Assembly (NCBI GenBank): GCA_000092065.1
Contig: CP000583.1
Length of the DNA: 64,000 nucleotides
Strand: one strand, 5' to 3'
Origin: Ostreococcus lucimarinus
Taxonomy: Eukaryota
Part shown: positions 31,846 to 44,041 of the stretch, piece by piece
Position numbering within the stretch: the stretch's first letter is position 1
How the letters are laid out: each line of letters opens with the position of its first letter
The notes under the pieces: generated by a model
What the model was told of the DNA's origin: nothing
Databases searched by the model: none
What the model saw: the letters and a program-made list of their open reading frames with translations, nothing else
Program-made: the position numbers and the translations under genes

Positions 31846-31907
31846 CAATGTCGTCGTATCGATCGTGTCATCGCGTCAATGTCGTCGTATCGATCGTGTC
31901 ATCGCGT
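31846..31907. repeat. Perfect tandem duplication, 2 x 31 bp (CAATGTCGTCGTATCGATCGTGTCATCGCGT), spanning the stop codon and last codons of the acetyl-CoA synthetase gene.
   Basis: Direct reading; copy 2 (31877-31907) contains the ACS stop (forward tca at 31899-31901). Confidence 0.85.
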
Positions 31908-34106
31908 TCCGCGCGCGTGTCTCTCGGCTTTGATGATCTCGTCTACGACCCCCGGGTCGGCCAACGCGGAGACGTCGCCGAAATCGTCGACGTCGCCGGC
32001 GGCGATTTTCTTCAAAATTCTTCGCATGATCTTTCCGCTTCGAGTCTTCGGCAAATCTTTCACGATGACGACGCGTTCTGGCGCCGCGAAGGGGCCGATT
32101 TCCATGCGAACGTTCGTGATGAGTTCTCGTTGATGGATTTCGAGCGACGACCGTTTCTCGATGCTTCGAGACGGATCTAAGATGACGTAAGCGACGATGG
32201 ATTCGCCCTTGACTTCGTGCGCGATTGAAACCACGGCGGCTTCGATGCAACTCGAGTGCTGCACTAATGCAGACTCAACCTCGGCGGTCCCGATGCGATG
32301 ACCACTGACGTTCATGACGTCGTCCAAGCGACCCGTGATGAAGAGGTATCCATCGGAATCGCGTCGCGCGCCATCGCCCGAGAAGTAGTAACCACCCTCG
32401 TACACCTTGAAGTAAGAATTTTCGTACCGCTCGTGCGCGCCGTGAACGTCGAGAAACATCCCCGGCCATGGTTCTTTGATGCACAAGCATCCTTCGCCCT
32501 CGCCTTGAATTTCAGTTCCATCTTTCGGATCAAGCAGCACGGGAACGATTCCAAAAAACGGAAAAGTCGCGCTCGAAGCCTTCAAGGGTGTCGCACCGGG
32601 TAACGGTGTGATGATATGACCGCCCGTTTCTGTCTGCCACCACGTGTCACAAATCGGGAGTTTATCGTCGCCGACGACGCTGTGGTACCACAGCCACGTC
32701 TCGCTCGAAATCGGCTCGCCGACAGTTCCAAGGATTCGCAAAGAAGCGCGCGAACTTCGCTTGACAGGATCCTCACCGTAACCTTGCAACGTGCGCAACG
32801 CCGTCGGCGAAGTGTAGAAGACAGTAACGTCGTATTTGTCCACAGTTTGCCACCACACACCTGCATCTGGATACGTAGGCACGCCTTCGAAGAGCACAGT
32901 CGCGCATCCATTCAACAGCGGTCCGTACAAGCCGTATGAATGCCCCGTGATCCATCCTAGGTCGGCGGTGCAGAACAAAACGTCCTCTCCGGCATGTAGA
33001 TCGAAGACGAACTTGCTGGTGGCGTACACGTACGTCTGATAACCGCCGACGCTGTGTACGACGCCTTTGGGTTTACCAGTCGAACCAGACGTGTAGAGAA
33101 TGAACGCCGTGTCGCAACTGTCCAGAAATTCAATAGGTGCTGGCTTTCCATCCGTCCTAAACTCGGCGACACTCTCGTTCCACCACAAATCCCGATCCGA
33201 ATGAAAAGGTACGTCTTCGACGTGCGGAACGCCTTCGATCTCAATGTCAGCGTTATGCTTCACGACAACTTTGTTTACGCAAAACCCATCGCTCTTGCAA
33301 ATCTCCATTGCTTCGTCCACGATTTTCTTCAGCGGAATGATCTTTTCGGCGCGACGGGACGCGCTCGCGGTGATGACCATTTTGGCTTTGCAATCGTGAA
33401 CGCGCTGCGCGAGAGATTTCGCGCTGTACCCGGCAAACACAACGCTGTGCACTGCGCCGATTCGCGAGCACGCGAGCATGGCGATCGGTAACGCTGGAAT
33501 CATCGGCAAGTACATGACCACGCGATCGCCCTTCTGCACGCCGTGCGCTATCAAAAATTTTGCGAAAGTCTCCACCTCGACGAGCAACTCACGGAACGTA
33601 AATTCCGTGCAATTAATCTCATCATTCGCTTCGAAAATCAAGGCTCGTTTGTCACCCATACCATTTTCAATTTGTTTTTCGAGGCAGTTGTACGCCATGT
33701 TCGTCCTCGCGCCCTCGAACCATTTCACGTGAACGGGCCCCCGAGACGGGTCAAAGTTGTGCGTCGACGCGCTCGAGTCCAAATTTTCAAAGTACAGTTC
33801 GCCCGCGATCTCGGTCCAGAACTGATCACGCTCGTGAATTGAGCGATGATACATGCTCCGGTACTGTTCGATCGTGCGCACGTGCGCGCGCGATGCGAGC
33901 TCGATCGGTGGAAAGAACACATCTGACGCCTCCTCCACTTCTCTGAGGCGGTGCGCGTTGTTCTGTATGTCAATGGAACTACTGCGCGAATTCGGCGAGC
34001 CTGGTGGATCCGATGTAGCGGTTATGGCGACTGATTTACGACGTGATCGAGAGTTTCGCTTCGGGGCGAAGTGCGTTGGCACGTGGCGCGAAGTTGCCGA
34101 GCGCAT
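31899..34106 (-). CDS. ACS: Acetyl-CoA synthetase (AMP-forming).
   Basis: YTSGSTGKPKGVVH (AMP-binding motif), ...FWTEIAGE..., YFSGDGARRDSDGYLFITGRLDDVMNVSGHRIGTAEVE and C-terminal VKDLPKTRSGKIMRRILKKIA are present. ATG verified at 34106. Confidence 0.9.
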   Translation of the reverse strand: MRSATSRHVPTHFAPKRNSRSRRKSVAITATSDPPGSPNSRSSSIDIQNNAHRLREVEEASDVFFPPIELASRAHVRTIEQYRSMYHRSIHERDQFWTEIAGELYFENLDSSASTHNFDPSRGPVHVKWFEGARTNMAYNCLEKQIENGMGDKRALIFEANDEINCTEFTFRELLVEVETFAKFLIAHGVQKGDRVVMYLPMIPALPIAMLACSRIGAVHSVVFAGYSAKSLAQRVHDCKAKMVITASASRRAEKIIPLKKIVDEAMEICKSDGFCVNKVVVKHNADIEIEGVPHVEDVPFHSDRDLWWNESVAEFRTDGKPAPIEFLDSCDTAFILYTSGSTGKPKGVVHSVGGYQTYVYATSKFVFDLHAGEDVLFCTADLGWITGHSYGLYGPLLNGCATVLFEGVPTYPDAGVWWQTVDKYDVTVFYTSPTALRTLQGYGEDPVKRSSRASLRILGTVGEPISSETWLWYHSVVGDDKLPICDTWWQTETGGHIITPLPGATPLKASSATFPFFGIVPVLLDPKDGTEIQGEGEGCLCIKEPWPGMFLDVHGAHERYENSYFKVYEGGYYFSGDGARRDSDGYLFITGRLDDVMNVSGHRIGTAEVESALVQHSSCIEAAVVSIAHEVKGESIVAYVILDPSRSIEKRSSLEIHQRELITNVRMEIGPFAAPERVVIVKDLPKTRSGKIMRRILKKIAAGDVDDFGDVSALADPGVVDEIIKAERHARGTR

Positions 34107-34163: not shown

Positions 34164-36023
34164 TCATTGAAACAATGTCGACAAGTTTGTGACGTCGACG
34201 CGCATGTTCGGAGCTGGCTGCGCGGACGGAGAGCTGTTCGCATCGTCGGGTTTACGCTTCGCGTCGTCGGTCGACTCGTCTTGTTTCGGCTTTGCATCCT
34301 CCTTTGACTCGGCGACGATCGGCGCTACGATCGGCACGTAGCTGCTCGCGCTTTTCACGATTGACGAAAGCCATTCTTGATCTGGTTGCTTCATCGATGA
34401 CGATGACGATGACATAGATGACATAGACGATGATGGTCTTCGCTTTGAAGCGGGCGGTTTTCGGATCGGTTTCTTCGGCGGCGTTTTCGGCGTGTCAATC
34501 TCGCTCGCCACTTCTTCATTCAGAGCAACTTGCGCGAGGGACATGTCGTGGATGACAGACTGCGGTACGCCAGTGTAATTTTCCAACGTAGGCGGAGCCG
34601 CGAGCATGGTTTTCAAGTTTTCAAGCTCTTCGATACCAGTCTGCAAATCAGGACGAGTCAACCAGAAGAATTTTTCTTGACGTGCGACGCCCACACCGAG
34701 TACAAGAGCAAAAGCCCGCTGCGAACGGTCGTTCGGTAATGGATACTTGATCACGGGCATTCCTAACGCGCGCGCGTTTTCTATTGCATCAGTATCACCA
34801 GATCGCGTCGCGCGACAGAACACTTCAGCTCGGTGTCTCGTGATACGTTGCACGATCTGTTCTGATCGTGGACGCTGACGCGAGTACATGAGTACCAAGT
34901 CATCATTCGCTGGCGTAAGCCAAAACTCGAGTGCACTTTGCGTGAAACGCGTAGATACATCGTGTTTAAGTGTACACGGTCCCGATAATCGTCCCGACCT
35001 TCCGTAGCATGGTAAAAGAATTCCGCATCGTACAGCGGCGATGGGCTCGTCGAGCGCTTTGGCGACGCTCTGAATATCGTCAATTGTCAGAACGATTTCC
35101 CGACTCGTCGTGACCATTTTATACTTCGTACTAGTATTGCTCGTCTCGTCATTTCGCTTCTGTAAGTGCTTCACCTTGATGCTCATTCCGATACTCGTCA
35201 TGCTCGAAGCCTCGACGCGCTTGAGTTCGGCTTCGGACGCCCCGGCAAATTCTGCGTGCTGATCACGACATCCCGCGAAGTGCGCGATTATCGGGACGTT
35301 TTCTGCCGTGGAAGTAGACGCTAAAGATTCGTCGTCCATGTCACTGTCGTCGATACGAAGCATTCCAATGTCGATCAAGTCATCAGGAATCGAAAAGTTG
35401 GCATTCAGCCCGACGCTTACGCCGCACTCGTAACAGCATCCAAGAGAAGGGGTCAAGCATTCTCCGCTATCGACTGGACAACATCGACAGAGCGTACGAA
35501 TCACACTCGCCTCGGCCGCGCTCGCGTTCGCGCTAAAGCTCCGAATGAAGTGAATCTTGACTTTGTTCTTGTGCGCCGTTTCTAGAATCGCCGCAGCTTC
35601 GTCGTGGGTCATCTCCAACGCCTCGTCCGCCAAAACGACACAGTGCTTGTTGTCCTTATCGCCTCGATAACTCTTCAAAGCTAAGATGGCGTACCTCAAC
35701 GCCGATCCAACGAATCCCGCGTTGTGCGAACCTGGCTCTCTCAATTTTCGCACGTCGCGCTCCAACGCCGACCACCACGCGTCGTTAAACTCCGTCGTCA
35801 TCGAACGCACCGCGCATCCTCTCGACTTCCCGCGGCCTACGCTCCCATCTATGATTATCGCACCGCACGCGCGCGCGCGCTCACCGCGGCAAATCGCCTT
35901 CGCCGTCGAAACGAAACGATCCTCCGCGGCGTTTGTCTCTACATCTTCCACCGCCTCTCCCGCAGCCGTGCGCGCGAACACGAACGCCACCGCGGGTTCG
36001 CGCGCGACGTCCTCGACGAACAT
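34164..36023 (-). CDS. Hypothetical 619-aa protein with a possible vWA-like N-terminal region and a Cys cluster (CRCCPVDSGECLTPSLGCCYEC); function unassigned.
   Basis: Long ORF of normal composition with ATG verified at 36023. It is divergent from the PPR gene (142-bp spacer). I recognise no confident family. Confidence 0.4.
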   Translation of the reverse strand: MFVEDVAREPAVAFVFARTAAGEAVEDVETNAAEDRFVSTAKAICRGERARACGAIIIDGSVGRGKSRGCAVRSMTTEFNDAWWSALERDVRKLREPGSHNAGFVGSALRYAILALKSYRGDKDNKHCVVLADEALEMTHDEAAAILETAHKNKVKIHFIRSFSANASAAEASVIRTLCRCCPVDSGECLTPSLGCCYECGVSVGLNANFSIPDDLIDIGMLRIDDSDMDDESLASTSTAENVPIIAHFAGCRDQHAEFAGASEAELKRVEASSMTSIGMSIKVKHLQKRNDETSNTSTKYKMVTTSREIVLTIDDIQSVAKALDEPIAAVRCGILLPCYGRSGRLSGPCTLKHDVSTRFTQSALEFWLTPANDDLVLMYSRQRPRSEQIVQRITRHRAEVFCRATRSGDTDAIENARALGMPVIKYPLPNDRSQRAFALVLGVGVARQEKFFWLTRPDLQTGIEELENLKTMLAAPPTLENYTGVPQSVIHDMSLAQVALNEEVASEIDTPKTPPKKPIRKPPASKRRPSSSMSSMSSSSSSMKQPDQEWLSSIVKSASSYVPIVAPIVAESKEDAKPKQDESTDDAKRKPDDANSSPSAQPAPNMRVDVTNLSTLFQ

Positions 36024-36164
36024 ATTTTTCTATACCGATACGCTCGCCGACGCGCGACGTCGCTCGAGCGACACCGCTGGGGCGTCGCGCTCTGCATTTC
36101 GTGCGAGCGTTTTTTTTCGCCTCGTGACCTGAACCTTCAACCTTCAGTGCGCGACTCTCGCGCG

Positions 36165-38499
36165 ATGTTTCGCGCGGTCGCGCGCGCCTGCGCCCGGGCG
36201 CGATCGCGCGCGGACGCGCAAACGTGCGGTCGAACGCGCGCGCGCGACGAGTCGGCGGTGTGGACGTCGGTGCGCGCGACGACGCCGAGGTGTTGGCTCG
36301 GGACAAAGGTTGAACTCGCCGAAGACGACGGGACGAGCGCGAGCGCGAGAGAGGACAGCGCGAGAGAGCAGACGCTGCGCCGACGGCACGTGGCGAGCAT
36401 GCGACGCGCGCTTCGCGCGAATGATTTTGAGGGCGTGCGGAGAGAGTTTGAGGCGCTCGCGGCGTCGACGACGAAACCGGGACGCGCGGCGTGGAACGTA
36501 AACGTGCTCGCGGCGGCGCGAGCGCGAGAGCCCGAGGCGGCGCTGTCGATCGTCGAGTCAATGCTCGCGGATAATATCGGACCGGATGTGAGCACGCACA
36601 CGGCGGTGATGCAGGCTTACGTGCGCGCGGGACGATACGGGGACGCGTTTAACTGGTTGAAGATGCACCTGTACGGCGTACCGAAGGACGTTGAACAAGG
36701 CTTTGATGGCGAAGATAACGTAGAAATGGACACGAGGTATGATCTATCACATGTGATTGGGGACATGATCGATGGCGATGAGGAACACGTGTCGAAGACG
36801 CGCGTGAATAGCATGATGTTTACAACCGTGATGAACGGCGCGGCAAAGGCGGGCGACCGAGCAACGGTGCAAGAAATCGAGACGATGATGTTTGAGTTCG
36901 ATGTGGCACCTTTAGCAGATACGTTACACTGTTTGCTCAAGCTCGAGCGCGTCGCGGGGACGAGTGCATCGGTGGAATCTGTGTGGGATCGTTCCAAGCT
37001 CAAAGCGCGCGCGTTGAAAGCACATCAAGAACGCGTCGTCGCTCACGCGTTTCTGGGTCGCCAAAGAACGCAGCGCGCCGCCGAATCGCGTGCGCTCGCA
37101 GTGAAAGCATTAGAAGATCTGTACGATCGCGTGGGTCGGAAGCGCTCGGACGAAGACTTTGCGAAGCTGGAGAAGAACAATCATTCAGGGTCGAGATATG
37201 CTCGCTGGACCGGCGAACGTGGTTTAGAAGAGTACCGAAACAACTTGGTGAGCGACGACGATATCAAGAAAGTCGGAACGAAGGAAGTTTTAATAGCCAC
37301 GAACGCCGTGATGCTCGCGCATGCTGCGGTCGGTGACACGGACACAGTCAATACATGGTTTGTTCGAATGGAAGAGGATTTGGGCATCAACGCAGACGTG
37401 CGAACGTTCAACGCAGTACTACGCGCCGAATACATGCGAGATAAGATAAAGCTCGGTGTCGTGGATCATGAGCAAGCAATGATGCGATTTCAAGAAGTGA
37501 TGCTTGCGATGGAAGATCGAGAAGTCGAGCCGACGACGTACACGTTTTCGACACTTCTCTTGGCGCACGCAGAACAAAGCCACTTACCCGGTGTCGCAGA
37601 GGTTTTGAAGCTCATGCAAGAGCGAGGACTCGCGCTTGATACTACGATGTACAATATTTTATTGGGTGCTTGCGCGCGAGCGGGTGATTTAGACGCTGCG
37701 CTCAACGCGCGGGCAAGCATGGTCAAGTCTGGCATTGCCGCCGGCCCAGACACGTTCGTGCCGCTCTTCGCCGCGTGCACGAAACAGGCGGAGGAACTGG
37801 ACTTGGACGGTGATATGTTTGAATTAGATGAAGAAGTCGTTGGACCTCTGTTAGATCGCACACGAGCGACTTTAGATAGCGTGGAGTTGGATATGCTCTC
37901 AAGCAACGTCGAGCACAACACGCAGTCGTTCACGGCTTTGGTCAAAGCCAGAGGGGCTTTGGGTCAGCCAGACGCCGTGTTCGACATGATCAGCGAATTG
38001 CCAGAAAACATCGAACTCGACGAAGTCGCCATCGGCCTGAGTGTTTTGGCGGTTGCGAAGCGTGAACCAACCAAGGCTATTGCGCTCGCCGATTCCCTCA
38101 TGGACGAGTCGATGGTGCTGGATCCGTGGCTTCTCAACTGCATCATCACCGCTTACTCTCATCTCGGTCAAATCAAAGCAGCTACCGAGCGCGTGCAAGA
38201 CTTCATCAAGCGAGGCGGTGTGCCGACTGTCGCAACGTACAACGCGCTCTTCCGATGCGCCGCCCAGAGCGGCAGCTTTGCCGAATACGCCCCGCTCGTC
38301 ATGAACGAGATGTCATCGCGCGATCTCAAACCGGACAAGTACACTCGCAAATTTATCGCTGCTGTCACCGCCGGTTCATCCGTCCTCGATCGCGAGACGG
38401 CGGAAGCGCTTCTCAAAAAGTGTCCCGGCGGCGACAAGTTCTTCGTCGCCGAAGACGCCGCCGGACAGGACGACTTCGATTTCCTCGCCGACGCCGGCT

Positions 38500-38530
<31 letters not shown>

Positions 38531-38543
38531 TCTATTATTGTAA
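36165..38543 (+). CDS. Pentatricopeptide-repeat (PPR) protein with a C-terminal poly-Asp tail.
   Basis: Multiple 35-aa PPR units (VSTHTAVMQAYVRAGRYGDAFNWLKMH; TYTFSTLLLAHAEQSHLPGVAEVLKLMQERGLALDTTMYNILLGACARAGDLDAA...). ATG verified at 36165; the track ORF starts 147 codons upstream. Confidence 0.75.
38502..38531 (+). repeat. (GAC)10 trinucleotide repeat encoding the poly-Asp tail of the PPR protein.
   Basis: Direct reading gives ttcgacgacgac...gacgatcta. Confidence 0.9.
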
Positions 38544-38695: not shown

Positions 38696-40597
38696 ATGCC
38701 CTCGACCGCGTCCGACGCGCGCGAGCGCCGCGCGCGCGCGAGCGCGATGTCCAGCGCATCGTCTCCGAAGCGCCGAAGCACGCTCACGCTGCCGAGGCGC
38801 GACGCCGTGACGCGAAACACGAACAAGCTGCAATTGCCCGGTTGGGTCTCCATGCCGAACTCTGCGCTCGCGTCCTGCCTCGCGGTGCTCGCGACGAACC
38901 CGATGGACCGCGCGAAAACGATCATGCAACTCCCGGGCGTCGGCGCGTCGTGGGGCAAGAACATGCGGGAGGTGACGATGAATATGGTGAAGAAGGAAGG
39001 CGCGCTGCGCGGGCTGTACAGAGGTTTACCCGTGGCGATGGTGCGAGAGTCGTCGAAGAATGTGTTTCGAATTGGGCTGTTCTTACCGGTGCTGAAGGTG
39101 ATACACACGGATGATGATAACCCAGCACCGGCGTGGAAACGGTTCATGGCGGGATGTCTGAGCGGGGGGATCGGGGCGGTGTCGAGTAATCCGTTTGATT
39201 TGATCAAGACGCGGATGCAAGTGCCGGCGGCGATGTGCGAATACGAAAATGGAATGGTGGCGTTGAAGAAGATTTGCGCCAAGGAGGGGTGGAAGACGTT
39301 ATATAAAGGTGTGGGCGCGAGTGTTATGAGGGACATGCTCGGCTCGAGCGTGAATTTGACCGTGCAGTCCATCGCAAGCGAGGCGCTCGTGAGGAATATG
39401 ATTTTATCGCCGGGTTCGCCCGTGCTCGGCGCGCTGAGCGGCGTTTTAAGCGCGGCGGCGTCGGTGGCGGTGATGCAGCCGATCGACACGTCGCGAGCGT
39501 ACGTGTATCTCAAGCCGCACATACACAAAGATACTATTAGAGCATTTAGGTACATAGTTTTGAGGGAAGGGCCGTTGGCGTTGTACAAAGGCTCGCGCGC
39601 ACACTTTTTCCGCACCGCGCCGCACTATGCGGCAATGTTTGCGCTACTGGAGATGATCACCGGCGGTGAACGGAAGGTTTTACTGTCAAGGAACAAGAAT
39701 GTACTGGAGAACGTGCATATGTTCGACGCTCTGTCCAAGGACAAAAGAATCCGACTGGCGAGCATGGTCCAAATGAAACACTTTAAAGCGGGTGAGCAAA
39801 TCATCGGCGCCGGCGACGAAACGCCTGGGGAGATGTACATCATGACTCGTGGATGCGTCAAGATTGACCAAGCGAATAAAAAGGGGAAGAAGGGGAAGAA
39901 TACGGAAGATCAAGGGAGCGACGTCATCCATAGTGGCGGTTACTTTGGCGAATCCTACATGTTCTCCTCTGAGGCGAGCAATGAGACGGTCACGGCCGTC
40001 AACGACGTGACGTTGATGGCTGTGCCACGAGAAGCCTACGAAACGTGTCGCAAGGGCGAATTTGCTTCTGCTACTCTCTTCGACGAAGGGTTCGATGACC
40101 CTTCGAAGGAAATCGGTATGGCTTGGCGTCGGCTTCGCTACGAACGCACGTTGGCAAAGATCCCTGTTTTCGCCGACCTCGGCTCCTACGAGCGTGCCAT
40201 GGTAGTTAAACAAGCCAAACGGTTCAGTTTTAAGCCCGGTGAGAAAATCATACGCCAAGGTGAAGTTGCGGACAAGTTTTACGTCATCCTTAAGGGTTCA
40301 GCCGTTTCCACTAAATCCGACGGCGACGTCGACCACGTCGCCCCGGGATCAAAAATCCCTCCCGACCGCATCATGCGCAACTTTAGCCAGGGTCAATACT
40401 TTGGCGAGCTCGCGCTGCTTACTGGCCAGCCTCGCTTAGCAACCATCGTGGCGAACGACTCCTTGGAAGTTCTCGCCATCGATCGCGACGTCTTGAAATC
40501 GTTGCGCGAAACATTGCCGACGCTTGAAGACGAGATCATTCGCAATCTTCGCAGATTCGACCACATGGATTCATTTACCACAATGTCTATAGCGTAG
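38696..40597 (+). CDS. Fusion protein: a complete mitochondrial carrier (SLC25) domain followed by two cyclic-nucleotide-binding (CNB/cNMP) domains.
   Basis: Carrier repeats end ...NPMDRAKTIMQL, ...NPFDLIKTRMQV and ...MQPIDTSRAYVYL, followed by the C-terminal FFRTAPHYAAMFALLE. Two CNB domains follow, with FKAGEQIIGAGDETPGEMYIM...GGYFGESYMF and FKPGEKIIRQGEVADKFYVILKG...GQYFGELALLTGQPRLATIVA. ATG verified at 38696. Confidence 0.8.
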   Translation: MPSTASDARERRARASAMSSASSPKRRSTLTLPRRDAVTRNTNKLQLPGWVSMPNSALASCLAVLATNPMDRAKTIMQLPGVGASWGKNMREVTMNMVKKEGALRGLYRGLPVAMVRESSKNVFRIGLFLPVLKVIHTDDDNPAPAWKRFMAGCLSGGIGAVSSNPFDLIKTRMQVPAAMCEYENGMVALKKICAKEGWKTLYKGVGASVMRDMLGSSVNLTVQSIASEALVRNMILSPGSPVLGALSGVLSAAASVAVMQPIDTSRAYVYLKPHIHKDTIRAFRYIVLREGPLALYKGSRAHFFRTAPHYAAMFALLEMITGGERKVLLSRNKNVLENVHMFDALSKDKRIRLASMVQMKHFKAGEQIIGAGDETPGEMYIMTRGCVKIDQANKKGKKGKNTEDQGSDVIHSGGYFGESYMFSSEASNETVTAVNDVTLMAVPREAYETCRKGEFASATLFDEGFDDPSKEIGMAWRRLRYERTLAKIPVFADLGSYERAMVVKQAKRFSFKPGEKIIRQGEVADKFYVILKGSAVSTKSDGDVDHVAPGSKIPPDRIMRNFSQGQYFGELALLTGQPRLATIVANDSLEVLAIDRDVLKSLRETLPTLEDEIIRNLRRFDHMDSFTTMSIA

Positions 40598-40727: not shown

Positions 40728-42614
40728 ATGGACTCCAAGTGGTTCACGCGCGATGTCGCGGAGCTGAGGACCTGGCGAATCATCGGCGCGTGCGCGTGGT
40801 CCACGCTCGCTATTTTCGTCGCCGTACGTCGCGCTCGCGTCGATTTGATTTCGATTTCGCCAACGTCCGCATTTGATTCTCGACGAAGGCGACGACTGAC
40901 GGAGCGCCATCGCGACGCGCGCGCACAGGCATACGCATACTTCACGTGTGTACACATTCTTGGTGGTGACTTCCCGCACTGGTCGCGCGTGGCCGTGGCG
41001 TTGACGTACGCGGCGACGCAACTGCCAGCGAGCGCGGCGACGGCGATGTGCGCGAGAGCGAGCACGGCTGATTTCGTGCCGAACGGCGAAAGGGACGCGT
41101 GTGGAATCGTGCGAGGGGAGAGAATCGGTGAACGGTTCGCAACGGCGATGATGCGGGATGGGATGACGATCGGGGCGTTGGGCGGCGCGTTTGCATGCTC
41201 GGGGAGTTTGGCGTGCTCGCTCGCAGCGAGGACGACGCCGACGCGGGGCTTGGTGGGGATGATGACGGTGAACGCGTCCGACGCTACGTTCGCAGCGCAA
41301 TTTGGCTGTGTGTTGGGGGTGATGACAGTGGTGAACTTTTGGTTCAACGATGGTTTGGTGGTGAAGTTTTCATCGGTGCAGCGACCGCGCGGGTTGCGGT
41401 TGAAACGCGCATTTGCGCCGTGCGCTCTAAGTGGATTGAAGCGTTCCCTTTATGCGTGCGTGGTGCATATTTTGGTGGTAATTGCGAGTCGATTCCTCGT
41501 CCAGCTCAGCGCGAAATCGTCTCGAGGTTTGTTCTTGGGGTCGATGTCGTGTTGGGGCGCTGGGGCGCTCGCGAGCGCTTCGTGGGCGCTCGCAATTTTC
41601 TGCGCCGAGATCGTGCACACCGAGCGCTATGAGTTCAGACCGCAAAGTTTGACGCAAGGTCCGAAAGTTGCGAGCGAACCTCTGATGGCGGCTTTGCATT
41701 ATTTCGAAGTTCCGTTCGTGCAGCACTTGGCGTTTGCAGACTTGTGCAACGTCGCCGAGAGCGGTGGACGCGGACGGCGCCAGCTCATCTACGGCGATAC
41801 CCCCGATGCGGCGTGGTCTGTGGTGATATCGATCGCTCTCGCGCCGTTGGCATCGATTTCGCGTTCGGTGAACAAGGCGATGGACCGCACTATGTTGGCG
41901 GCGTTGCGAGACACGGATGCGGATGCGGCGCAAAGGATTAGTGAAAAGTACGCGCAAATGAATACGCCAAAGCCCAAATTTCGACACGAGAGCGCGCAGA
42001 CGCAACAAGCGTGGAATGCGTTGCGTCAAAGCGAGGTGCTCTCGACCGATGTTGCGGCGCGTGAGTTGTGCACGGTGGTCAAGGCGTACGGGCAATTGGC
42101 GATTTGGGGCGCGCGCGCTTCGTCTTCGCTCGCCGTCGCCGCGAAAAAGGAAGATGTTCGCGGAAACGCGCGTTCGATCAATCCGTCGCTCAGTGCGATT
42201 GTGCGAACGTTACTTACGGCACAATTAGCATGTCGGACGATCATCGAGCAAGGTTCTCCTCCCGTGCGCGCCTCCAGTGGGTTCACCTCTAGCGATTTGG
42301 CGTCGACGTCAAAGGCGAATTCCATCGTCGCGAAGCGAAACGAGATCATCAACAACGTCTTGTACGTTTTAGGAATCACCGCCACCAATAGAAATGATGC
42401 AAACGGTGCTGTGACGCCGGCTTTCACGCCCGCAGTGGAGACTGCGAAGAGAATATCGGACACCGTGGAGATCGCTTTGGGCGCGCTCGTCGTCGAGTAC
42501 GGCGACGACGTCAAAGTCATGCTTCGCGAATCCGAACAATTCGGGCCGCCAGAGTTCGGCACACCGAACGAGCTGTTTGATGCCTTAGAAACAATCGCCA
42601 CCGACTTGGCGTGA
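40728..42614 (+). CDS. Multi-pass membrane protein (about six TM in the first 310 aa) with a roughly 300-aa soluble C-terminal domain; function unassigned, with a speculative NDC1-nucleoporin-like topology.
   Basis: ATG verified at 40728. The hydrophobic segments are WRIIGACAWSTLAIFVAV, VAVALTYAATQLPASAATAM, MTIGALGGAFACSGSLACSLAA, FAAQFGCVLGVMTVVNFWF, LYACVVHILVVIASRFLV and GLFLGSMSCWGAGALASASWALAIFCAEIV. Confidence 0.5.
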   Translation: MDSKWFTRDVAELRTWRIIGACAWSTLAIFVAVRRARVDLISISPTSAFDSRRRRRLTERHRDARAQAYAYFTCVHILGGDFPHWSRVAVALTYAATQLPASAATAMCARASTADFVPNGERDACGIVRGERIGERFATAMMRDGMTIGALGGAFACSGSLACSLAARTTPTRGLVGMMTVNASDATFAAQFGCVLGVMTVVNFWFNDGLVVKFSSVQRPRGLRLKRAFAPCALSGLKRSLYACVVHILVVIASRFLVQLSAKSSRGLFLGSMSCWGAGALASASWALAIFCAEIVHTERYEFRPQSLTQGPKVASEPLMAALHYFEVPFVQHLAFADLCNVAESGGRGRRQLIYGDTPDAAWSVVISIALAPLASISRSVNKAMDRTMLAALRDTDADAAQRISEKYAQMNTPKPKFRHESAQTQQAWNALRQSEVLSTDVAARELCTVVKAYGQLAIWGARASSSLAVAAKKEDVRGNARSINPSLSAIVRTLLTAQLACRTIIEQGSPPVRASSGFTSSDLASTSKANSIVAKRNEIINNVLYVLGITATNRNDANGAVTPAFTPAVETAKRISDTVEIALGALVVEYGDDVKVMLRESEQFGPPEFGTPNELFDALETIATDLA

Positions 42615-42784: not shown

Positions 42785-44041
42785 ATGTTTCGCGCGTCTG
42801 TGGCGCTCGGCGCGCGTCGTCTCTCGAATGGGTACCTTTTCGCGTGCCCGCGCGCCGCCGGCGCGCGCGCGCGACGACGATACCGCCCGAGCGGCGCGAC
42901 GTGTCGACTCGACGTAGAATGTCGTCCGTCGTCGTACGACGAAGAATTGCGAGAGAAGACGGCGCACGCGCGCGCGCACTTTGACGGCGTGGCGACGCTG
43001 CCGAGCCGCACGGAGACGTTCGAGAGCGCGCGAGAGGAGTTTCGCATGCGCGCCGAATTCAAGGTGTGGCACGACGGCGATAGGAGTTACTTCGCCATGT
43101 GTGATTCCGATCGACCGAAGGACCCGGTGGAGGTGGTGGACTTTCCGATGGCGAGCGCGCGCATTCGCGAACTCATGCCAGAGTTGCTGCGCGAGGTGAC
43201 GGCGACGGAGACGCTGCGAAGAAAGCTGTTTCAAGCGAATTTCCTCACCACGACGACCGGAGATGCGGTGGTGAGTTTGTTGTACCACAGACAGTTGGAT
43301 GAAGATTGGGAACGCGAGGCGGAGGCGATGCGGGCGCGGTTGGGGATCGACGTCATCGGTCGCGCGAGGAAGCAAAAACTTGTCCTCGCCAAGGATTTCG
43401 TGACCGAGAAGGTGTTGATCGATGGGAAGGAATTTAGTTACAAGCAGTTGGAGGGGTCGTTCACGCAACCGAACGCTGGAATTGCGGCGCAAATGCTCGC
43501 GTGGGCTCGCTCGGCGGCGGTGAGCGATTCACCAGACGTCGTCGCGGCGGCGACGCCGCGAGACGCGAATCGAGATTTTCTCGAGCTCTATTGCGGCAAC
43601 GGACATTTCACGATCGCGCTCGCGCCCTTGTTTCGCAAATGTTTGGCGACTGAAATATCGAAATCGTCCGTCGCCGCCGCGCACGTGAACATGGCCGCGA
43701 ACGGAATCGACAACGTCGTCACCGCGAGACTATCGGCGGAGGAGCTGTGCGACGCCCTCGACGGCGGACGCGAGTACACGCGCCTGAAGGATATAGATCT
43801 CACGACGTACGATTTGAGCACCGTGCTCGTCGATCCGCCGCGCGCCGGCATGGGCGACGAAGTGAGCAAATTCTGCGCGCGCTTCGACAGGATCATTTAC
43901 ATCTCGTGCAATCCGGAAACTTTGGCGCGAGACTGTAAAATTCTCGGCGAGACGCACGAAATCAAACGATTCGCCGTCTTCGACCAGTTCCCTTACACCC
44001 CGCACTTAGAGTCGGGCGCGCTCTTGGTGAAGCGCGCGTGA
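42785..44041 (+). CDS. tRNA (uracil-5-)-methyltransferase, TrmA/TRM2 family.
   Basis: LELYCGNGHFTIALA (SAM motif), TVLVDPPRAGM and IIYISCNPETLARD are TrmA signatures. Stop verified at 44039-44041. Confidence 0.8.
   Translation: MFRASVALGARRLSNGYLFACPRAAGARARRRYRPSGATCRLDVECRPSSYDEELREKTAHARAHFDGVATLPSRTETFESAREEFRMRAEFKVWHDGDRSYFAMCDSDRPKDPVEVVDFPMASARIRELMPELLREVTATETLRRKLFQANFLTTTTGDAVVSLLYHRQLDEDWEREAEAMRARLGIDVIGRARKQKLVLAKDFVTEKVLIDGKEFSYKQLEGSFTQPNAGIAAQMLAWARSAAVSDSPDVVAAATPRDANRDFLELYCGNGHFTIALAPLFRKCLATEISKSSVAAAHVNMAANGIDNVVTARLSAEELCDALDGGREYTRLKDIDLTTYDLSTVLVDPPRAGMGDEVSKFCARFDRIIYISCNPETLARDCKILGETHEIKRFAVFDQFPYTPHLESGALLVKRA

Follow-up and report, generated by a model that had tools for sequence, protein, structure and literature searches.

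Sensor-regulated carriers and the Ostreococcus locus

The mitochondrial carriers of the SLC25 family that are governed by an attached sensor are exemplified by the aspartate/glutamate carriers Aralar/citrin (SLC25A12/13) and the ATP-Mg/Pi carriers SCaMC/APC (SLC25A23-25), in which the carrier is joined to a soluble second-messenger sensor on the intermembrane-space side. To our knowledge, the regulation of a carrier by such an appended sensor has so far been known for Ca2+ only, via N-terminal EF-hands. A second precedent lies outside the carriers, in the CNG/HCN channels, the bacterial SthK and MloK1 and the sperm Na+/H+ exchanger SLC9C1, where a cyclic-nucleotide-binding (CNB) domain follows the last transmembrane helix and is mechanically coupled to the gate. 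The gene described here resembles both. It lies in a 64,000-nucleotide stretch of the Ostreococcus lucimarinus genome (GenBank assembly GCA_000092065.1, contig CP000583.1), hereafter the window, and it encodes a protein of 633 residues in which an SLC25 carrier is followed by a tandem of two CNB domains, CNB-A and CNB-B, of the type found in the regulatory subunits of cyclic AMP (cAMP)-dependent protein kinase (PKA-R).

The comparison with each precedent brings out differences. Aralar and SCaMC were the strongest annotated matches outside the fusion family in a full-length search (their carriers are ~21-30% identical to that of the window protein), but their sensor consists of N-terminal EF-hands that respond to Ca2+, whereas that of the window protein is a C-terminal CNB tandem. 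Pfam detected no EF-hand family in the window protein, the N-terminus of which consists of 49 residues predicted to be disordered. The CNB domains of SthK, MloK1 and HCN2 are detectable as sequence relatives of the window CNB; however, CNG/HCN and SLC9C1 have unrelated membrane folds (a tetrameric channel and an NhaA-type exchanger, respectively) that are not organellar carriers, and they bear a single CNB domain attached via a C-linker in place of a tandem. Neither a tetrameric pore domain nor a C-linker of the CNG/HCN type was present in the Pfam result for the window protein, and the resemblance is functional only.

A carrier and a CNB tandem in a single gene

An earlier note on this DNA had claimed that a complete three-repeat carrier and two CNB domains share one open reading frame, and had proposed domain searches of its translation. 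Those searches, on the product of 38696..40597, bore the claim out: Pfam returned three stretches of Mito_carr (E 5.5e-46, 154.7 bits; cutoff 22.3) and two of cNMP_binding (E 2.3e-31, 108 bits; cutoff 27.5) as the sole families in the 633-residue protein, and translation of the window strand across 38696-40597 (+) met 0 internal stops. The reading frame is kept through the junction (nucleotides ~39600-39745, residues ~302-350), in which G323, E325, R326, N333 and F343 are invariant in a 19-sequence alignment. Since the two parts share the same frame and a conserved junction, and since the architecture recurs across at least three lineages, in numerous assemblies made independently of one another and in transcripts that are complete, with synteny and with a proportion of nonsynonymous differences (pN) far below that of synonymous ones (pS), the fusion is a genuine single gene and not an artefact. 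A 633-residue near-copy with 2 residue differences, and other variants of the same length, have been called in metagenome/SRA assemblies; these within-population variants amount to 2-11 substitutions, too few for a polymorphism test.

Among the window, O. tauri and a Tara Ostreococcus-type contig, pN was 0.08-0.23 vs a pS of 0.5-0.8 in every folded domain. The between-species synonymous divergence is saturated, and the ratios of nonsynonymous to synonymous divergence (dN/dS, ~0.05-0.2 for folded domains) are to be read qualitatively only. Judged from these comparisons, every folded domain, CNB-A included, is under purifying selection. The highest ratios among the segments were those of residues 1-49 (dN/dS 0.27-0.48), which may be a targeting sequence.

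The carrier domain

No part of the protein is better conserved than the carrier, which is 64-88% identical across the fusion family and has the lowest dN/dS (~0.08-0.13) among the larger domains. Its closest solved structures are UCP1 (E 3.7e-24) and UCP2 (E 2.8e-20) as found by phmmer, and Foldseek superimposed it on UCP1 (8hbv) with a template-modelling score of 0.82 normalised to the target and a root-mean-square deviation of 4.4; the helices of an AlphaFold2 model agree with this match in forming a six-helix barrel. The signature PX[DE]XX[KR] on helices H1, H3 and H5 reads PMDRAK, PFDLIK and PIDTSR, making the matrix network complete, and it is kept in all homologues. An alignment anchored on UCP1 places R117, R212-D213 and R306 at the substrate contact points. 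The three Arg are essentially invariant, and UCP1, UCP2 and the oxaloacetate carrier group likewise have an Arg at each point. Contact point II is R-D in the window protein and R-[SAG] in non-algal relatives; in the scheme of Robinson and Kunji, R-D at this point is reportedly typical of amino-acid carriers. Because of the three binding-site Arg and the R-D pair, the residues suggest that the substrate is a small anionic or zwitterionic metabolite, e.g., a carboxylate or an amino acid.

The cytoplasmic network is another matter. Its motif, [FY][DE]xx[KR], was not found on H2, H4 and H6 in the UCP1-anchored alignment, the sequences there being FLPVL, QSIAS and LEMIT, and the network is absent in every member of the green-algal clade, whereas UCP1 has kept its motifs (YDTVQ, YDLMK and FEQLK). 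The strength of this network varies among accepted SLC25 members. Neither UCP1/UCP2 nor the group of oxaloacetate carriers (JGI label SLC25A34/35) has an appended domain, and their identity to the window carrier is only ~24-29%; one oxaloacetate carrier belongs, distantly, to the broad clade of the window carrier.

The CNB tandem and its kinship with PKA regulatory subunits

The C-terminal 309 residues found their best match in PKA regulatory subunits (RI-alpha, E 3.6e-26). Over the second domain, the alignment with RI-alpha reaches both C-termini ('...RNLRRFDHMDSFTTMSIA' vs '...RNIQQYNSFVSLSV'), and it places F621 (Tyr in Micromonas) opposite Tyr371 and Y498 opposite Trp260, residues that we take, in the numbering we assume, to be the B-site cAMP cap and the A-site cap (W260), respectively. 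A BLASTP alignment with the PKA-R of Yarrowia was colinear across both domains (query 329-609, subject 131-374), and Foldseek matched PKA-R and PKG tandems at E ~1e-15; no solved chain found by Foldseek spans both halves of the window protein. In the inter-domain helices, W477 and R481 are invariant and align with 'RKRKMYEEFL' of RI-alpha, and in the C-terminal lid, which is 89-96% identical among Ostreococcus-type sequences, R619, D622, F627, M630 and A633 are invariant. The likeness to PKA-R, RI-alpha especially, thus takes in the order of CNB-A and CNB-B, the helices between them, the cassette residues of CNB-B, the aromatic caps and the C-terminal tail.

What precedes the tandem is not that of a PKA-R. 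Pfam gave no match to the RIIa dimerisation/docking domain at E up to 0.1, and an inhibitor/pseudosubstrate site (RRx[SAG]) was not found N-terminal to CNB-A, the junction being GGERKVLLSRNKN. In Yarrowia, the RRTS site lies ~30 residues before the aligned region, and the equivalent position in the window protein falls inside H6. Because the docking domain and the inhibitor site are both absent, the whole protein, as judged from its motifs, is not a PKA-R, although its cassette is PKA-R-derived; it differs further in the loss of the CNB-A Arg and in the replacement of the N-terminal half by a transporter. The nearest free PKA-R-like proteins are of ~400 residues and 30% identity, and are encoded on marine metagenome contigs.

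Both CNB domains had been called canonical in the earlier note, a description that is right for CNB-B only. An FGE is present at 417 and at 569, and CNB-B, with the sequence FGELALLTGQPRLAT, has its Arg, with F569, G570, P579, R580 and T583 invariant in the 19 sequences; CNB-A of the window protein is without the phosphate-binding Arg. In Micromonas-type proteins, CNB-A is FGEQALLVDEPRAASV with the Arg kept, and both sites are canonical. Of the folded parts, CNB-A is also the least conserved (Ostreococcus-type sequences are 55-75% identical in it; dN/dS 0.11-0.20), and we take it to act in the window protein as a relay and not as a site for a nucleotide. Across the alignment, each lineage seems to keep at least one near-canonical site, but a different one. 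In PKA/PKG cassettes, a Thr after the Arg marks selectivity for cyclic GMP (cGMP). The residue after the CNB-B Arg is variable here (L, S, G, V, I, R or Q), and there is no conserved cGMP-type Thr; the comparison of binding pockets that the earlier note had proposed therefore leans toward cAMP over cGMP, without deciding between them.

The variable parts of the tandem are inserts. A Lys/Gly-rich low-complexity insert of CNB-A (residues 394-407; 39875-39916), lying between beta strands and modelled with a per-residue confidence (pLDDT) <50, grows to ~60-100 residues in Micromonas-type homologues (P0008-P0027), and a comparable variable insert is present in CNB-B ahead of the binding cassette.

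Distribution of the fusion

A word-indexed protein search produced ~40 full-length proteins, 45-81% identical, in which the two domain types occur together, including the O. tauri orthologue (CEF97119.1/XP_022838497.1; 75%), for which the only annotation is 'RmlC-like jelly roll fold', and that of the Tara contig (81%). In Micromonas polaris the fusion is present in transcripts marked complete, and the JGI pipelines label the fusion protein 'cAMP-dependent protein kinase regulator'. Fusion proteins have, in short, been in public databases already, under uninformative names. The wider distribution was assessed with a HMMER profile of the 19-sequence alignment, run without a word filter against 1.84 billion cluster representatives. 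At the top of the list, the only full-length fusion representatives were P0004, which is Ostreococcus-type, P0013, which groups with the Micromonas-type in the alignment, and P0037, of a third lineage, plus fragments; the contig of P0035, a clade-mate of P0037, is at 51% GC, and this lineage, which is lower in GC, may be Bathycoccus-like. Orthologous fusions, which the earlier note had suggested looking for in relatives, are therefore found in Ostreococcus, Micromonas and a third lineage, and its remark that the architecture was unfamiliar from model organisms fits a profile search in which the fusion was seen in the algal clade only. On these sequence data, the fusion is confined to picoalgae of the Ostreococcus/Micromonas group, in the class Mamiellophyceae.

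A local screen of 459 collected proteins with carrier and CNB profile hidden Markov models found, outside the algal fusion, only one protein with both (P0437; XP_072238263.1 of Leuresthes tenuis, named 'carnitine/acylcarnitine carrier isoform X2'). It has two carrier repeats, RIIa and two CNB domains, and with only two repeats and a complete PKA-R it was judged to be most likely a read-through of SLC25A20 and PRKAR2A, which we take to be neighbouring genes, and was rejected as an independent fusion. Candidate stand-alone carrier orthologues (P0040, P0041, P0043, P0045, P0046 and P0048) were likewise rejected: these matches to Mito_carr only run into CNB-A and then drift out of frame, and are therefore broken predictions and not stand-alone carriers. 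The M. commoda reference (XP_002501272.1, P0196) has only 266 residues and is named 'mitochondrial carrier family, partial', while metagenomic and transcript members of its 90% cluster, that of P0038, show the full fusion at up to 691 residues; the reference gene model appears to be truncated.

The literature search found no description of a carrier-CNB fusion, and a paper on a diel metatranscriptome mentions carriers generically only. The architecture is conserved, lineage-restricted and apparently undescribed.

Carriers with C-terminal EF-hands and the probable origin of the fusion

The best-scoring carriers outside the fusion are proteins of ~500-550 residues in which the carrier comes first and is followed by a C-terminal extension of ~190-220 residues. 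Pfam identified the extension as EF-hands in P0332 (Vermistella), P0339 (Syssomonas), P0333, P0342, P0354 and P0050; that of P0346 (Balamuthia), which was not scanned with Pfam, is of equal length, and some fungal relatives have no C-terminal extension. The closest is P0050, from an MMETSP alga, with a carrier that is 50% identical, an R-D contact point and no cytoplasmic network. A neighbour-joining tree, for which support values were not computed, makes P0050 the sister of the fusion clade. The others score ~160-215 bits against the carrier-domain profile. These proteins have the carrier domains closest to that of the fusion and bear a regulatory extension at the same C-terminal position, but a pair of EF-hands serves as their sensor in place of CNB domains, and in most of the non-algal ones the cytoplasmic network is partly retained and contact point II is R-[SAG]. 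Because the nearest carriers bear EF-hands in that position, a C-terminal Ca2+ sensor was probably exchanged for a cyclic-nucleotide sensor in the ancestor of the algal group.

The C-terminal EF-hand carriers are themselves widespread (P0050, P0332, P0333, P0339, P0342, P0345, P0346 and P0354, from sources that include an MMETSP alga, Amoebozoa and Syssomonas). The Balamuthia copies, e.g., KAL6053934.1, are annotated as 'tricarboxylate transport protein', and no paper on carriers with C-terminal EF-hands was found in the literature search.

A model for gating, and its alternatives

The explanation that best accounts for these features, to which we give a probability of about 55%, is that the window protein is a cAMP-regulated SLC25 carrier, with a PKA-R-type tandem joined to H6 and a sensor swapped from an EF-hand ancestor. 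In SLC25 carriers, the cytoplasmic side is closed by a movement of H2, H4 and H6 at their cytoplasmic ends, and in PKA-R-type cassettes the N-terminal helix moves on ligand binding. In the AlphaFold2 model (based on the 19-sequence alignment; mean pLDDT 73.4), these elements are predicted to be one: H6 is a single helix, 300-338, that extends ~16 residues past its membrane part into the N-terminal helix of CNB-A. As the termini of carriers face the intermembrane space/cytosolic side, the sensor module would lie at the carrier's cytoplasmic mouth. The intact site of CNB-B would bind a cyclic nucleotide, in all likelihood cAMP, and CNB-A, which is conserved although it has no Arg, would pass the rearrangement of CNB-B on through its N-terminal helix to H6. 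As H6 belongs to the three gate helices, its repositioning would switch transport on or off across what would be a mitochondrial membrane. Such coupling would be analogous to the pull of the CNB domain on S6 in CNG/HCN channels, or to the control of access by the EF-hands in SCaMC/Aralar, and the appended module would supply or control the gate in place of the lost cytoplasmic salt-bridge network. That transport is gated directly by cAMP or cGMP is a reasonable inference because the PKA-R-type cassette is predicted to be helically joined to a gate helix and the cytoplasmic network is missing. We hold more tentatively, at a little short of even odds, the fuller proposal that this is the first SLC25 carrier to be directly gated by a cyclic nucleotide, with a sensor rigidly spliced to H6, an origin in an EF-hand swap, and possibly the role of principal cAMP effector of the picoalgae.

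Several observations weigh against a cAMP-gated mitochondrial carrier. The pTM (predicted template-modelling score) of the AlphaFold2 model is 0.48, at which the model is no reliable guide to where the CNB domains lie with respect to the carrier, and the continuous helix is a prediction only. The loss of the cytoplasmic network is common to the EF-hand sister P0050 and is not specific to the cyclic-nucleotide version. Some members of the carrier family reside in plastids or peroxisomes. CNB-A is FGESYMFSSEASNETV, without the phosphate-binding Arg, in the window protein and equally in all five Ostreococcus-type sequences, and in the third lineage it is CNB-B that has changed, to FGGK with its Glu lost, while the CNB-A Arg is kept (orthologue L002 2647-4710). 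To judge from these changes, the CNB sites are labile in evolution, and some of them may have another ligand or none. Finally, the class III cyclases of Chlamydomonas are stated to be without orthologues in Ostreococcus (PMC5508029), which is at odds with the 1-2 canonical cyclase domains reported for Ostreococcus and Micromonas genomes (PMC4620153).

The lability of the sites leads to the alternative that the cassette is no longer responsive to cAMP or cGMP, and is a sensor of some other small molecule or a constitutive plug, with the carrier regulated or unregulated. In addition to the missing Arg of the Ostreococcus-type CNB-A (one of the five even has FNE, not FGE) and the missing Glu of the third lineage, it is favoured by the presence among the fold matches of Arg-less PKA-R domains with inosine or guanosine (6hyi and 6hyq), by the precedent of the trypanosome PKA-R, a nucleoside binder, and by the minimal cyclase repertoire of these algae. 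We nevertheless consider it unlikely, although deserving of attention, since the canonical contacts (G-E...P-R-x-A-T) are all kept in CNB-B of the window protein and are conserved, as is an aromatic cap, the Micromonas-type sites are both canonical, and cAMP is reported to be a light-dependent messenger in Ostreococcus: a passage of PMC12558739, citing Moulager 2010, describes light-dependent changes in cAMP that control cyclin A. A membrane-anchored regulatory subunit of the PKA type, in which the carrier serves as the anchor and a kinase is tethered, inhibited and then freed by cAMP, would agree with a tandem that is PKA-R-like through both domains to the C-terminus, and with the JGI pipeline name. 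This is improbable, as there is no RIIa docking domain in the Pfam result and no conserved RRx[SA], the equivalent position falling inside H6 and the Ostreococcus junction not resembling RRxS; moreover, a mere anchor would not be expected to be the most conserved domain of the protein, with its binding site and matrix gate intact.

The carrier domain might, alternatively, have ceased to transport, leaving the whole protein a membrane-bound receptor (a 'transceptor') or a structural protein. In favour of this, all three of the cytoplasmic-network motifs are gone, but the PxDxxK/R motifs of the matrix network are invariant on all three helices, as are the Gln braces and the Arg at each contact point, and the dN/dS of the carrier is the lowest among the larger domains; functional carriers with weak cytoplasmic networks are said to exist (Robinson, Overy and Kunji, in 2008), and a non-transporting carrier seems very improbable. 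That an error of sequencing or assembly, or else read-through, has fused two adjacent genes recalls the Leuresthes tenuis protein (the 'SLC25A20 isoform X2'), which looks like just such a read-through. In the algal fusion, however, the frame is continuous without a spacer, the junction is itself conserved, the many assemblies, lineages and complete transcripts agree, no stand-alone version was found in our searches, and pN is far below pS throughout, and the artefact is effectively refuted. A cAMP-regulated carrier thus remains our preferred reading.

The gene and its neighbours

The features of the gene and its surroundings are collected in the table. In the window, the gene order is acetyl-CoA synthetase, an open reading frame without assignment, the PPR protein, the carrier-CNB fusion, the Ndc1 nucleoporin and the tRNA U5-methyltransferase. 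The same order is found on chromosome 3 of O. tauri (CAID01000003.2, with the orthologue at about 415,168-417,051), where the gene upstream of the carrier has no recorded Pfam match, and on the Tara contig it is kept from the PPR gene onward, so that the synteny of the fusion is common to three Ostreococcus genomes. No evident link to cyclic-nucleotide signalling was found in the flanking genes for acetyl-CoA synthetase, Ndc1 and the tRNA methyltransferase. The upstream PPR protein (35724-38543, +; PPR_2, E 3.3e-32) ends in a run of ~10 Asp residues. A formally longer version of the carrier frame begins at 38126; it is an Arg-rich read-through that overlaps the 3' end of the PPR gene in another frame.

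Table. Features of the carrier-CNB gene and of its neighbours, in window coordinates.
Feature	Position	Strand	Remarks
Whole coding sequence	38696..40597	+	ATG, 633 codons plus stop; intron not needed
N-terminal extension, residues 1-49	38696..38842	+	Arg/Ser/Ala-rich; variable in alignment; pLDDT <50
SLC25/mitochondrial-carrier domain, residues 55-322	38858..39661	+	three repeats, six predicted transmembrane helices
Matrix-gate signature H1, P69-M-D-R-A-K74	38900..38917	+	PxDxxK/R motif
Matrix-gate signature H3, P166-F-D-L-I-K171	39191..39208	+	invariant in fusion family
Matrix-gate signature H5, P262-I-D-T-S-R267	39479..39496	+	invariant in fusion family
Junction, residues 323-350	39662..39745	+	predicted continuation of H6 into N3A helix of CNB-A
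CNB-A, residues 351-455	39746..40060	+	Pfam cNMP_binding; AlphaFold2 strands 359-444; beta-barrel
CNB-A phosphate-binding cassette FGESYMFSSEASNETVT	39944..39994	+	Gly-Glu kept, Arg absent
Inter-domain helices, residues 456-495	40061..40180	+	B/C helix of domain A plus N helix of domain B; AlphaFold2 helix 469-487
CNB-B, residues 496-605	40181..40510	+	canonical; Pfam best stretch 511-605; RI-alpha B domain 58.9 bits
CNB-B phosphate-binding cassette FGELALLTGQPRLATIV	40400..40450	+	E571, R580
C-terminal helix/lid, residues 606-633	40511..40594	+	RI-alpha alignment continues to C-terminus
Acetyl-CoA synthetase-type AMP-binding enzyme	31899-34106	-	neighbour
Open reading frame, 618 residues	34164-36023	-	no significant Pfam match; ANAPC15 match sub-threshold
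Ndc1 nucleoporin	40728-42614	+	neighbour
tRNA (uracil-5)-methyltransferase	42785-44041	+	neighbour
Open reading frame, 646 residues	44070-46013	-	no significant Pfam match

Significance

A cAMP-gated carrier of this kind would vary an established principle, that of SLC25 carriers regulated by a sensor, without amounting to a system of a new kind. If the model is correct, it would add to the sensor-regulated mitochondrial carriers a second messenger and a second geometry, in which the sensor acts on the C-terminal gate helix, and the protein would be a natural experiment in the outside control of a cytoplasmic gate from which the usual salt bridges are absent. The comparison has also brought to light a class of carriers that bear EF-hand sensors at the C-terminus, widespread and apparently undescribed, and the swap of EF-hands for CNB domains at one position suggests that other sensors, too, could be built onto carriers by engineering. 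For algae with a minimal signalling toolkit, among which O. tauri is genetically tractable, the fusion would provide a concrete cAMP effector, and it might link light-dependent cAMP to the exchange of metabolites between mitochondrion and chloroplast.

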